Positions 9,001-15,000 of a stretch of 34,811 nt of DNA are shown piece by piece. Position numbers: made by a program. Within the stretch, counting starts at the first letter, position 1; the number at the start of each line of letters is the position of its first letter. Source of the stretch: a virus (Duplodnaviria > Heunggongvirae > Uroviricota > Caudoviricetes); IMG/VR virus record IMGVR_UViG_2526164665_000032. One strand, given 5' to 3'.

Positions 9001-12000
9001 CAGTAATGGTAATTATGTAAGCGCCAGTTTCGTTAATAAAACCACCTTGCCCTGCGGTCAGTGCTGCTTCTTCGTTATAAGTAAAAATTACGTTGCTCAT
9101 GCGGCGTTTTCCTTAATTTGATGAACATTATTGATGCCGTAGTAATCACAAACAGTGGCATCGACGAAAGAGAGATCGTTATCAATCTCATTGGAATCAA
9201 ACATTCCCATTGGGGATTTAACAGTGTCTGCACCGTTGTTTTTCGTGGTGAAAAAGAACTGGTCATCGCGGGTAAGAGTGCGAAGAACTATAGTAAACAT
9301 GCCTTCGACAGTGATTTTCTCGTCCAGCATTTTGCCGATAGTCTTCATTTTCACGCGCCCCATAGGGGTTTCTTCGGTGTGCGCAAGAAAATAGACTCTC
9401 AGGTCATCAGGCGCATCCTGTGCAGCCTTAATGACCTCCCATGCGTGGCGGCCTATCTCAGTAAATTTATCAAACGATTTTTCTTCTGAGCGGCGCATAA
9501 ACTCATTGCTCATCACATACTGGAAGTCATCAACAATAACGATTCTTTTTCCGTATTCGTGAGCACGCTTAATTACAGCAACTATTACGTCCCATTTGTC
9601 AGTGGTAACTACGGTTCCTTTTTTGCTCTGGCATCCCATGCAAGCCAGTTTTTTTGATTTAAATGGTAGCGGCTTGCCTATTGGTTTTATAAGTATTGCT
9701 TCCTCTGGATTGATATTTCTCATGCTGGTTGATTTTCCGGTGCCAGACTCACCGAGTATTAATATCGCAGTTCCCATAATTCACCTCAGAATGGTAATTC
9801 GGATGGGGAGGAAAGAAATTCGCGCTCATTCATGCGCTCTCTTTGTGCCTGCCATAAGCAAAGTTGTTTCTTTGATTTATCTCCCGCTTTACGCCAGTAA
9901 CGAGCCTCAGCAATGTGATACTCTCTTTTTAATCGACTTAACTCTGGGGTTTTCGCCAGTTCTACCGGAATCATTTTGACCTCCATTTTCTGTAGGCTTC
10001 TACGGCTTCACGAAACATCTTTTCATCGCCAATAAAAGTGGCGATAGTGAATTTAGTCTGGATAGCCATAAGTGTTTTATCCATTTTTGGGAACTCCTGG
10101 CTGATTAAGTACGTCGATGAGTCGCTTCCATCCGTCACGTAATTTACGGGTGATTCGTTCAAGTAAAGATTCGGAAGGGCAGCCAGCAACAGGCCACCCT
10201 GCAATGGCATATTGCATGGTGTGCTCCTTATTTATACATAACGAAAAACGCCTCGAGTGAAGCGTTATTGGTATGCATATAAAAAGGCCCTCACGCACTG
10301 GAGGGCAAAGAAGATTTCCAATAATCAGAACAAGTCGGCTCCTGTTTAGTTACGAGCGACATTGCTCCGTGTATTCACTCGTTGGAATGAATACACAGTG
10401 CTTATTCGTACTAATAAAATACCCAATTTTCTGTTTCTTGGTTGTGTCCAAAGTTATATTCAATATCTGGTGTTGATGTATCAATATTTTTCATCCCATC
10501 AACAAGAGTTGATACAACAGCCAAATCTTGTTTTATTCTCATTAAATGGTATTTCTTCCGGCGCAATAAACTTTCAATAGCAAGTTTCTTCGTTGGGAAT
10601 GCAAAAGATCTTTCTGCATTTTTTGCTACTTTCTTAATTGCATATCTATTTCTCCTTTGTTTCCATTCCTGTAACCACTGATTTGGTGCTGGTTTAAAAT
10701 TAACAATCCAATGCGCAGGAACCAACCATGCATAATGCTCTGTCTGATGAAAAGCTATATATTGAAGTGCGAATATTTTTATCCCATCTTCTTCAACTGT
10801 CGCCTGGAATCTCCAGAAAACAGGCATTCCATCATGTTCAGTTTCTGATTCAGGAAAAGGTACGCTCCATGATTTTGTCATATCTCACCTCAAATAAGTG
10901 GTTTGCTGCCTAATTTCATTTTCTGGCGACCAACACAAGTCACCTCGCCGTCAGTTGTTTTGATTTCCGGTAGCCTGCCGCGTAAATGGCTACGTTTGGA
11001 AGACATACACCAGTTTCTGGTTGCTTATGTCCAAACTCATTCGCGTACACAATGGCCGCTCGCTCCAGATTGCGTCTGTATTCTTTCTGTTGCCAGATCA
11101 CGTCCTGTGCCATGAACTTAATTGGCTTAGCGTCTTCTATGCGCTCAGGCGTTTCGTGAGTACCTTTAGCCTGAATCTGCGCTCTGCTTAGAGTAGGGCG
11201 GTGTAATACTTCTGAACTTATTGCTTCTTCGCGGGCCAGTACGCCGTTAGCTAATGCCTTTGCCTTTAAACGCTCACGACGACGAGAACGTGAATTGCCT
11301 TTGAACTGAGTTCTGCGTGTCATATAGACCTCCTGATGAACTTTGGTGGTGTGGTAGGTGGGAGACCCATTTCGACCTGTTTCGGCCTACTTCAATTCGG
11401 CAATAGTCCCGCAGGCCTCGCCGCTTTACGTGCGACATATTCCCGTCCATGAACCCTTCACCACACCCCAAAGTTCACTTTGGTTATTGCGCTTTGTCAG
11501 CGCCGTAGATTCATATTCGAATCGTTGTATATTCACCGCCCTGGTGAGTAATGCGTCCTGCTGATGGGTGAACTTTATCGGAGTGATAAATTAATGGCAA
11601 TAGCAAAATGATAAATTCTCTTGGTTTTCAAATATCGTATTGATTCTTATGGTGTTTTATTTTGTTGTAGGAATTCGACAGGATAAATAAAGAGATTTGA
11701 GGGAGATCTGGATTGCGTTGTTTAGCAAGTTGTATCTATTTATTTTTCAACAAATACAATTGGTTATGTGTTTTTAGGTGTGGGGATCGTGAGGCAAAGA
11801 AAACCCGGCGCTGAGGCCGGGTGGGGAATTTCACTTATTACTGTTCGTTTCCATGGGATTGGCCAAGAAATCAAAATAAGGCAGAGTGAACCTACCAAGG
11901 TTTGACATGAGGATAATTTGCTCGGCATATGTTTTTATATAGGGATATGCCATATTGGGAGCAATGGACCTTACCTCATATGATTTTGCCATTTCATGAG

Positions 12001-15000
12001 AAAAATCATCTTCTGACCGGAAGTCAAAGTCGTATGTGATGTCCATCTCAAGCCTGCCTTCAATAGTTACGGAGGCAAAATATCTCACTCTAAATAGCTT
12101 TGAATCCTTCACATTAGTGTAAAGTTCATTATTTAGATTAACGGTTGTTTTTATGGCTTTTTTTGCTGTTGAATCGCCTTCTAGCCGTGTCATAACCAAG
12201 CGTTCAACTTTTTTGCTAATGAGTTCAATTTTCATGGTAATAATAAGTAATTTCCGTCAGAAGTCATTTCGTCATTCAGGTTGCTAGCCGCTGTGAAACT
12301 TGATGACAAGTTACTTATCAAAGAAAAAACATTCCGTTTTTCTTTGCATTTGCCATTACCCCTTACTGCGCTGAACAACATTTTTGAAAAGTAAGATTCT
12401 GTAGCCTTTTCAGCGAAATAAGCAGAAGGTGATGTGACGGCTGACTCACACCGAGCAATGACGCTAGTCATGGCTGTTTCTTCTTCCTCTGCGTCAACTA
12501 GGCTCCATTCAATTGCGCTCATATCTTGAATTAAGATATCTGCAGGAATTCCAAGTCCGTCATGTAGTCTACGGATCATTGAAAGACTTAATGGACGCTT
12601 ACGATTTAAGACCTCAGATACTTTAGATGCTGAGCCAATGTATTGTTTCATATCGGCATAAGAGAGGCCTTGTTGATCCATACGGAACTTGATTGCTTCT
12701 ATGGGATCTGGCTTGTCCATAGGGAACTCGCGTGACTCATAGTGCTCGATAAGCAAGCCTAGTAGTTCAAACTCATCAAAATCTTCAGTTCCAGGTTGTA
12801 AATCACTAGACGCAAGTTCAATGAGCCTTTCCATAGCTGCAGCATGCTCTTCACTATTTTTAATGATGCGCCAGCTAGTTCGATTCATTTAAGCCTCCAC
12901 TTGTCGTACTCTGCATGAGTTCCAACTCTTTCAACTATGACCATTCCTGCCTGGTAAACAACTTGGACAACGAGCCGATAGTTATTGCCTTTTATATTAA
13001 AAATTACCCTGTTGTTAGGAAGGAAGTCGGCAGAATTAAATCTATTCCGTATGTCTTGAGTCGTTTTCCAGTTTTCTCTTATCACTTCATCATACCAAGA
13101 GTCTAAAGCCCCCTTGGCCTGATTGTGCTTCCGGCTAAAACTGTGAAGCTTCTCTACGTTTAAGACCTTCATAATCCGATTTTGTTCCCTCTTTGGGAAT
13201 TATAGATTCATTTCCCATAAAGGGAATCTGTATTTTTATCCAGAAATGCTATGTACATCACCCAAACGTCTCTTCAGGCCACTGGTTACCAGCTATGTGA
13301 CGATGAAGTCACGAACTTTTCAGCCACTCCCTTGCCTCGATGTCATCCAGATGGCGAGATTGCTTCAGAATACCAGCCACATACTCCACCTTTGCTACTT
13401 GATGATAAGGCAACGTTATTGGCCTGTGGTCCTGGTTGATGCTTGTAAATTGGTATTCTCCGTCTCTGTCATAGCCAAGAACTTTGATCATGTTGTGTCC
13501 TTCAACAGTTCTGACAAACACCTCATCACCCGGGAATACTTTGGTGTTAGGCTCAATGAGTACATATTCTCCTGATTTTATTCTGGGCCACATGCTGTCT
13601 CCTTTCACACGAAGACCAAAGGCATCTGGATCATCGCTATAAATTTTGAGCCACCCATCGCGCTCTTCGGTCATCTCGATGGCACCATCAACACCAAGAA
13701 TTGCCTCACCAACCACGCGCACTAACCCTTTTCTTACCTGACCGACAAAAGTTAAAGAATCTGAGCATGATGCAATTGGTGTTACATCATGTACCAAATC
13801 AAGCCACCCATTAGGTAACCCAAGCGCGGCTTCAAATTTTCTTGCTAGTTTATCCCCTATGTTTCGAGTGCTTTTTTCACCGGAGACTTGCGTGAGTTGA
13901 GAAGGGCTAACCCCAAGCTTATCGGCAAAGCTTGCATTAGTGTTACCCGCGATTTTTTTATGCTCATCTAGCAAAAACGCCAGATTCGATTTGCGAATAT
14001 CTTTGTTTTCCATCTCACAATTTTCCCTCTATTTAGCAAATGGATAAATACGCAATATGATAAATTTACATTGCGGATGATTTATCAAAATGGTAAAGTT
14101 GTTCTGTGTGATAAACGGAGGCACTAATGAGTAATGAACTACTACGCTGGCGAAAAGAGGCTTCTAGTGAGGAATGGAAGCGACTCGCCGCATTAGCGAA
14201 AACTTCAGTTGGCTATCTTGACCAGATTGCATATGGATTTCGAAGAGCTTCCCCTGATAAAGCGAATGCAATCGAAGAAGCTACTCGTAATTTCACGGGT
14301 TATAAACCTGTGAAAAAGGAAAACCTAGTGTTCGTATCGCGTAGAGCATCGGCTGCATAAGTAACACCGCTATTTTCACAATGGACATTCGTCCTACGTC
14401 GCTGACAAAGCGAGTCCCAATATATCTGACCAACTAAGGCCACATGCGTTTCCACGCATACCTTTCAACTAACTATTCACTATTGGAAATCTTAAGAAAT
14501 GGAACAAACAAGTTACAGCAAACTATCACAGCGAGAAATTGATCGCGCTGAAACTGATTTACTCATCAACCTGTCAACGCTTACCCAGCGCGGTCTGGCA
14601 AAGATGATTGGCTGTCATGAATCGAAGATAAGCAGAACGGACTGGAGATTTATTGCTTCGGTCTTGTGTGCTTTCGGAATGGCATCAGACATCAGTCCGA
14701 TTAGTAGGGCTTTTAAGTATGCGCTTGATGGAATCACAAAGAAAAATCCCCGGTGGCCGCCGGGGACTCTAAGCAAATTGATATGCAATTCTGAGGGAAT
14801 TACTGGATCAATCCACAGGAGTCATTATGACAAATACAGCAAAAATACTCAACTTCGGCAGAGGTAACTTTGCCGAACAGGAGCGTAATGTGGCAGATCT
14901 CGATGATGGTTACGCCAGACTATCAAATATGCTGATTGAGGCTTATTCAGGCGCAGATCTGACCAAGCGACAGTTTAAAGTGCTGCTTGCCATTCTGCGT

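Follow-up and report, generated by a model that had tools for sequence, protein, structure and literature searches.

The DNA considered here is the virus record IMGVR_UViG_2526164665_000032 of IMG/VR (Duplodnaviria; Heunggongvirae; Uroviricota; Caudoviricetes), a stretch of 34,811 nucleotides (nt) that is called the window throughout and that is a lambdoid prophage of the Shiga toxin (Stx)-converting kind. Between its cI repressor gene and its leftward operators lie three genes, higB, higA and higC, which encode a toxin, an antitoxin and a SecB-like chaperone and together form the toxin-antitoxin-chaperone (TAC) operon HigBAC. The genes are co-oriented in the order toxin, antitoxin, chaperone, which is the layout of a TAC operon, and they share a single terminator. 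Each of the two junctions, higB/higA and higA/higC, is a 4-nt ATGA overlap of stop and start codons. Since cI lies upstream and the operators OL1-OL3, followed by N, lie downstream, the cassette occupies the slot that holds rexAB in phage lambda. An original prediction made from the DNA alone had described this gene arrangement, its placement between cI and pL and a downstream terminator, and all of these were found at the locus (Table 1).

Table 1. Features of the HigBAC cassette and its surroundings in the window (a dot marks a feature given without strand; aa, amino acids)
Feature	Position	Strand	Remarks
higB	12885-13172	-	95 aa; HigB/RelE-family toxin, translation inhibitor
higA	12232-12888	-	218 aa; antitoxin with N-terminal HigA-type domain (aa 1-121) and C-terminal chaperone-addiction (ChAD) extension
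Helix-turn-helix (HTH; Xre/HTH_3) region of HigA, aa 67-118	12535-12690	-	Pfam HTH_3 stretch; aligns with the E. coli HigA HTH
ChAD extension of HigA, aa 122-218	12235-12525	-	
higC	11831-12235	-	134 aa; SecB-like TAC chaperone
Intrinsic terminator of the operon	11803-11822	-	T-run continues to about 11793; terminator scan and RNA fold
Proximal TTCCC-N5-GGGAA palindrome	13185-13199	.	Starts 27 nt upstream of the higB ATG; putative HigA operator
-10 hexamer TATAAT	13199-13204	-	Starts 32 nt upstream of the higB ATG; putative operon promoter
Distal TTCCC-N5-GGGAA palindrome	13212-13226	.	Starts 54 nt upstream of the higB ATG; putative HigA operator
cI repressor	13309-14013	-	Upstream neighbour; Pfam Peptidase_S24 (3.8e-16) and HTH_3; annotated as cI in ST2-8624 and BP-4795
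OL1-OL3 operators / pL region	11574-11647	.	Downstream boundary; from the annotation of GenBank GQ499358, 100% identical over the stretch
N	10940-11323	-	N_peptide, 2e-15

By direct gene-by-gene comparison with the chromosome of E. coli NT1F31 (NZ_CP045190.1), the cassette is effectively the same system as the HigBAC of that strain, which is already known and was published in 2024 (Mets et al., 2024; bioRxiv 10.1101/2024.02.24.581848). The two loci share protein lengths of 95, 218 and 134 aa, the ATGA overlaps, the terminator, a position downstream of cI in a lambdoid prophage and ~99.5% nucleotide identity over the coding region. Only 7 of 1342 nt differ, giving three amino acid differences with one in each protein: HigB differs by one nucleotide and one residue (I31 here, R31 in NT1F31; 287 of 288 nt are identical both to the NT1F31 gene and to the synthetic toxin fragment of the paper), HigA by four nucleotides and one residue (R185 here, Q185 in NT1F31) and HigC by two nucleotides and one residue (A27 here, T27 in NT1F31). 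All eight residues that have been probed functionally, namely W128, F158, F188 and Y214 of HigA and Y39, N41, R49 and D71 of HigC, are conserved in the window. The terminator has a 7-bp stem with six G-C pairs followed by TTTTCTTT and a folding energy of -13.7 kcal/mol, and it forms the ‘native terminator’ end of the construct of Mets et al.; the primers of that paper match the window, and one of them, MT16_terminator_rev, maps to the terminator. In the 150 bp upstream the window departs from NT1F31 at seven positions, all outside the palindromes and the -10 hexamer. It also differs in its carrier, which is an Stx-converting phage of enterohaemorrhagic E. coli (EHEC) whereas the NT1F31 prophage differs in its replication and N regions.

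The toxin is clearly a HigB. It matches the Pfam family PF09907 (HigB_toxin) at 4.5e-30 with 104.2 bits against a cut-off of 27, as expected from the original prediction of a HigB-family toxin, and it matches the solved E. coli HigB structures 5YCL and 5IFG at 1e-4 in a phmmer search. It also matches the defence-system profile PADLOC PD-Lambda-2_A (2.5e-42). Residue 31 (codon 13080-13082), at which the window and NT1F31 differ, is I, R, V or K across natural homologues from several genera.

HigA is composed of two parts. A phmmer search aligns residues 53-119 with the solved E. coli HigA (5YCL/5IFG; 5e-5), and residues 5-127 match PADLOC PD-Lambda-2_B at 3.8e-50, covering only positions 3-125 of the 402 in that profile. 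The Pfam HTH_3 score of residues 67-118 (20.9 bits) falls below the cut-off of 23, and membership in the HigA family is not in real doubt because of the two preceding matches. Homology to the 138-aa E. coli HigA stops near residue 119-120. The remainder, residues 122-218, has no domain match in Pfam, NCBIfam or PADLOC and corresponds to the validated ChAD of NT1F31; over its full length the window HigA differs from NT1F31 HigA by a single residue. W128, F158, F188 and Y214 stand at their exact published positions, and the peptide 121-146 is identical to the one used for isothermal titration calorimetry by Mets et al. The antitoxin and its extension, predicted at ~95 aa and measured here at 97 aa, are thus as proposed; the description of the extension as aromatic-rich is too strong, with 9 F, W or Y residues in 97. 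The feature of the ChAD that matters is the set of four conserved aromatics about 30 residues apart, which are kept in the homologues from Klebsiella, Citrobacter and Serratia while the rest of the extension diverges. 

The matches of HigB and of the HigA N-terminus raise the alternative that the cassette is of the PD-lambda-2 type, the other known anti-lambda system based on HigB and HigA, and not a TAC system at all. That alternative has a negligible probability. The alignment to PD-Lambda-2_B ends at position 125 of 402, so the C-terminal peptidase that defines the PD-lambda-2 protein is missing from the 218-aa HigA, and the third gene gives no match to PD-Lambda-2_C and instead matches a SecB-like chaperone and carries the SecB fold. 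PD-lambda-2 identity is therefore refuted by the domain tests, which find neither the peptidase domain nor the C component.

The third protein required structural evidence. Its 134 aa have no match in Pfam or NCBIfam at E below 0.1, and searches of the PDB sequences with phmmer and with a 20-sequence profile gave chance matches only, the PDB copy used containing no HigC sequence. The original prediction held that its C-terminus aligns with E. coli SecB; by sequence this claim fails, as hhalign against E. coli SecB returned an E-value of 0.2 and a probability of 0.3%. By fold the relationship to SecB is clear. The AlphaFold2 model of HigC (pLDDT 86.8, pTM 0.80) has a four-stranded sheet and a long helix, and its best Foldseek match in the PDB is 5MTW, which is Mycobacterium tuberculosis Rv1957 with a ChAD peptide (E 5e-7, template modelling (TM) score 0.73-0.75). 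The next matches are the SecB structures 1QYN, 1FX3 and 1OZB from E. coli and Haemophilus influenzae, and SecB and the SecB-like Rv1957 account for every one of the top 19 matches of this predicted structure (E 5e-7 to 1e-4, TM 0.66-0.77; 0.70-0.77 for the foremost). The structure search that had been proposed as a check on this protein therefore did return SecB-fold matches. At the sequence level, HigC matches the PADLOC profile PD-T4-9_C (3.2e-11), which describes CmdC, the SecB-like chaperone of the CmdTAC system. The relationship to SecB is thus established through the CmdC profile and the fold search and not through direct sequence similarity, and HigC resembles SecB in fold alone and does not count as a canonical or housekeeping SecB. 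Y39, N41, R49 and D71 are present at the published numbering, and residue 27, which is A in the window and T in NT1F31, falls in a variable alignment column.

Experiments on the NT1F31 system supply the function (Mets et al., 2024). In that work HigB is a specific inhibitor of protein synthesis, HigBA alone is toxic, HigC relieves that toxicity, and deletion of the 97-aa ChAD (residues 122-218) yields a HigA that no longer depends on the chaperone. The four ChAD aromatics jointly mediate both instability and HigC binding, and the R49A variant of HigC is inactive. The NT1F31 system, which follows cI in the place that rexAB takes in lambda, protects cells from lambda-vir and Bas25; gpV, a tail protein of lambda, is its trigger, and the mutants that escape have the change S54P in gpV. 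The protein gpV binds HigC directly via W36 and W67 in the same pockets, competing with the ChAD and so releasing HigB (Mets et al., 2024).

Transferred to the window allele by near-identity, these results suggest the following mechanism. HigB, a RelE-family toxin, would shut down translation and would be neutralised by the N-terminal domain of HigA. The disordered 97-residue ChAD would render HigA insoluble and inactive unless it is held by a tetramer of the SecB-like HigC, whose pockets, including Y39, N41, R49 and D71, would grip W128, F158, F188 and Y214 of HigA. On infection by a lambda-like siphophage, the nascent major tail protein (gpV in lambda), with its similar aromatic pattern, would compete for HigC; HigA would then collapse, and free HigB would block translation and restrict the infection.

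Taken together, the Stx-converting lambdoid prophage of the window very probably carries HigBAC, a toxin-antitoxin-chaperone system directed against phages, as an accessory operon expressed in the lysogen. The role in superinfection exclusion or abortive infection, which the original prediction had put forward expressly as inference, has been demonstrated experimentally for the NT1F31 allele and may be extended by analogy to the present one, from which it differs by one residue per protein. Several points weigh against this reading. The window allele (HigB I31, HigA R185, HigC A27) would owe its defence function to near-identity with the allele that was assayed. Ribonuclease activity of HigB is likewise presumed from family membership together with the observed shut-off of translation. 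The R185 of HigA (codon 12334-12336) is unique among five aligned sequences, with Q in NT1F31, Klebsiella, Citrobacter and Serratia, and it lies three residues before F188 in an aggregation-prone patch. Residue 27 of HigC (A27T) belongs to a loop modelled with low confidence, and the difference could conceivably alter the range of triggers. In addition, the published defence assays used constitutive expression from Ptet on a plasmid (Mets et al., 2024), so expression and protection from the native prophage locus are presumed.

The use of a plasmid-borne Ptet construct also belongs to a different explanation, in which the cassette serves chiefly for addiction or stabilisation, holding the Stx prophage in the lineage by post-segregational killing, with defence arising as a side effect of over-expression. 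HigBA was indeed first found as a plasmid-stability locus (introduction of Mets et al., 2024), and the cassette persists in the window although the integrase is disrupted by an insertion sequence (IS) and the prophage is probably immobilised. This explanation is nevertheless quite improbable, given a specific phage trigger in gpV, escape mutants that change a single residue and direct binding between HigC and gpV. In several genera this locus after cI is also the hotspot at which lambdoid phages carry defence genes, and segregation does not remove an integrated prophage as it does a plasmid.

The state of the prophage itself was recorded at three places. Positions 1-579 (minus strand), with which the window begins, lie in the chromosomal gene wrbA, which places the prophage at the wrbA attachment site, as in EHEC O26:H11 11368. 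An IS3-family element of 1264 bp (1319-2582) splits the integrase gene (flanks 576-1367 and 2536-3177) into catalytic and arm-binding halves; it contains orfA (1383-1685; HTH_Tnp_1) and orfB (1721-2539; rve) and has the copies of its GTG target duplication on either side (1316-1318 and 2583-2585). O26:H11 11368 has an intact integrase, and the prophage copy in the window is probably unable to excise on its own. The stxA1 gene (22334-23280) has a 1-nt deletion relative to O26:H11 11368 and BP-4795, in which a run of six T is shortened to five near 22360-22365 within the signal-peptide codons, causing a frameshift after codon 11. Either stxA1 is a genuine pseudogene or the homopolymer was misread in sequencing; stxB1 (23290-23559) seems to be intact.

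With an IS3-family insertion in int and a frameshifting 1-nt deletion in stxA1, the cassette might be seen as an inactive, decaying remnant in a degrading prophage. The cassette itself gives little reason to think so. Its three open reading frames (ORFs) are intact, the overlaps, -10 hexamer, palindromes and terminator are preserved, and its DNA is 100% identical to that of the inducible Stx phages ST2-8624 and BP-4795. Its substitutions relative to NT1F31 fall at variable positions, which for HigB 31 and HigC 27 means positions that vary among natural homologues. Each of the exact window proteins is found on at least 1000 contigs, which also argues against decay. An inactive copy is accordingly rated as highly unlikely.

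The region upstream of higB contains candidate elements of native regulation. One TTCCC-N5-GGGAA palindrome had been predicted there; two are present, against an expectation of 0.06 in the window, and none of 100 shuffles reached two. The palindromes flank a perfect TATAAT on the minus strand. Both palindromes and the hexamer stand at identical distances from the higB start in the E. coli, Klebsiella, Citrobacter and Serratia loci, in which the sequence further upstream is unrelated, and in the Serratia palindromes the spacers are changed and the arms are not. The twin palindromes are probably autoregulatory operators of HigA, because arms and spacing that are conserved amid diverged surroundings are the pattern expected of such sites. 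The putative operon promoter is placed at this TATAAT, a perfect -10 element with a weak -35, and as a candidate promoter it faces one contrary result: a scan for the sigma-70 consensus called no promoter upstream of higB, which speaks against the regulatory part of the interpretation. The scan missed the site because the -35 is weak. A terminator scan found no minus-strand terminator between cI and higB, so read-through of the cI transcript is possible and may contribute to expression of the cassette. Operators and autoregulation are unmentioned in the HigBAC paper (Mets et al., 2024). The regulatory architecture conserved across genera is one of two small additions made here, the other being the distribution in Stx phages.

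With regard to that distribution, positions 11600-13400 are 100% identical to phages ST2-8624 and BP-4795, to many Stx1a and Stx2a phage records and to prophages of EHEC O26:H11 11368 and O157:H7 86-24. The wrbA-integrated Stx1 prophage of O26:H11 11368 and the window are collinear (99.9%). The full cassette is present in 88 of 5426 complete E. coli genomes and in 30 phage records, most of them Stx1a- or Stx2a-converting phages. The location of this allele in Stx-converting phages of EHEC is an addition of the present analysis: Stx phages are unmentioned in the HigBAC paper (Mets et al., 2024), and a literature search turned up no earlier account of the cassette in such phages. Among Klebsiella and Citrobacter prophages, too, it comes after a cI-like repressor. 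The homologue in Serratia marcescens (loci L012/L013, genes at 3055-4405), which is 60-64% identical, does not adjoin a cI repressor and lies in a P22-like context between a DUF927 primase-like gene and genes for P22-type ejection proteins (P22_gp7, Inj_translocase). This differing context implies that the cassette moves between different phage hotspots. The G+C content of the cassette is 0.37-0.42, compared with 0.44-0.50 in the flanks, and the gap is slight and not a strong signal of foreign DNA.

Elsewhere in the early-left region, a 156-aa ORF (10411-10881, minus strand) lies between N and the cIII/kil region. It has no Pfam match, is a hypothetical protein in BP-4795 (ORF18) and in O26:H11 11368, and may be another accessory gene of the early-left operon.

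To judge if the carrier could set off its own HigBAC, a homologue of lambda gpV was sought in the window and in BP-4795, and tblastn returned nothing better than E 8.7. The late region of BP-4795 matches the window at 97.7%, and the major tail subunit of BP-4795, ORF64 (locus L007, 22188-23033), is unrelated to lambda gpV by BLAST. These comparisons are consistent with a carrier phage that does not trigger its own HigBAC, and they are not proof of it because HigC recognises a short aromatic pattern.

Several described systems resemble HigBAC in part. The M. tuberculosis TAC (HigB1-HigA1-Rv1957) has the same order of toxin, antitoxin and chaperone, a C-terminal ChAD and a SecB-fold chaperone, so the predicted likeness to the mycobacterial architecture is borne out in gene order, extension and fold alike. 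Rv1957 is only 16-17% identical to HigC in sequence, and the 97-aa ChAD of the window is more than twice the length of that of M. tuberculosis HigA1. The role described for HigBAC, compared with that TAC, is phage defence from a prophage. Inactivation of NT1F31 HigA is independent of ClpXP, unlike that of M. tuberculosis HigA1 (Mets et al., 2024). CmdTAC (PD-T4-9; Vassallo et al., 2022, 2024) is likewise an anti-phage TAC in which a homologous SecB-like chaperone acts as the phage sensor. However, its toxin CmdT is an mRNA ADP-ribosyltransferase rather than a HigB, and its targets are T-even phages, not lambda-like siphophages. Membership of the window cassette in CmdTAC is ruled out, since the toxin is HigB and the homology extends to the chaperone alone. 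PD-lambda-2 (Vassallo et al., 2022) shares a closely related HigB, the HigA N-terminal domain and activity against lambda; its HigA-like protein is fused to a C-terminal peptidase and accompanied by the P4-antitoxin-like PD-lambda-2C, where the window has the ChAD and the SecB-like chaperone instead. The HigBA of E. coli K-12 (YgjN/YgjM; 5IFG, 5YCL) belongs to the same toxin and antitoxin families, but it has two genes, a 138-aa HigA without a ChAD and no chaperone. Lambda RexAB, finally, is like the cassette in its slot between cI and OL/pL, in its orientation on the same strand as cI and in its lysogen-expressed exclusion of other phages. RexAB has no homology to HigBAC and works by an entirely different mechanism.

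A further proposal is that the allele of the Stx phage responds to triggers, or plays a role, other than those published. This is a speculative extension that is rated as unlikely. If it were true, HigC of the Stx prophage might detect tail proteins of lambda-like phages, whether co-resident or incoming, and thus arbitrate between prophages, and the differences at HigC A27T and HigA R185Q could tune the specificity of the trigger. Such arbitration would indirectly shape which phage and how much Shiga toxin is produced on induction. Many lambdoid prophages reside in EHEC genomes.

The main value of the identification lies in correct annotation. In the Stx phages ST2-8624 and BP-4795, and in prophages of EHEC O26:H11 and O157:H7 86-24, genes annotated as ‘hypothetical protein’ or ‘helix-turn-helix domain-containing protein’ are those of the experimentally characterised HigBAC system. 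The mechanistic questions that are added concern native regulation and the allele-specific trigger range only. On the interpretation preferred here, clinically relevant Shiga toxin phages would give their lysogens a chaperone-based sensor against lambda-like siphophages, which is relevant to phage-phage competition in EHEC and to the prediction of host range for phage therapy and biocontrol.

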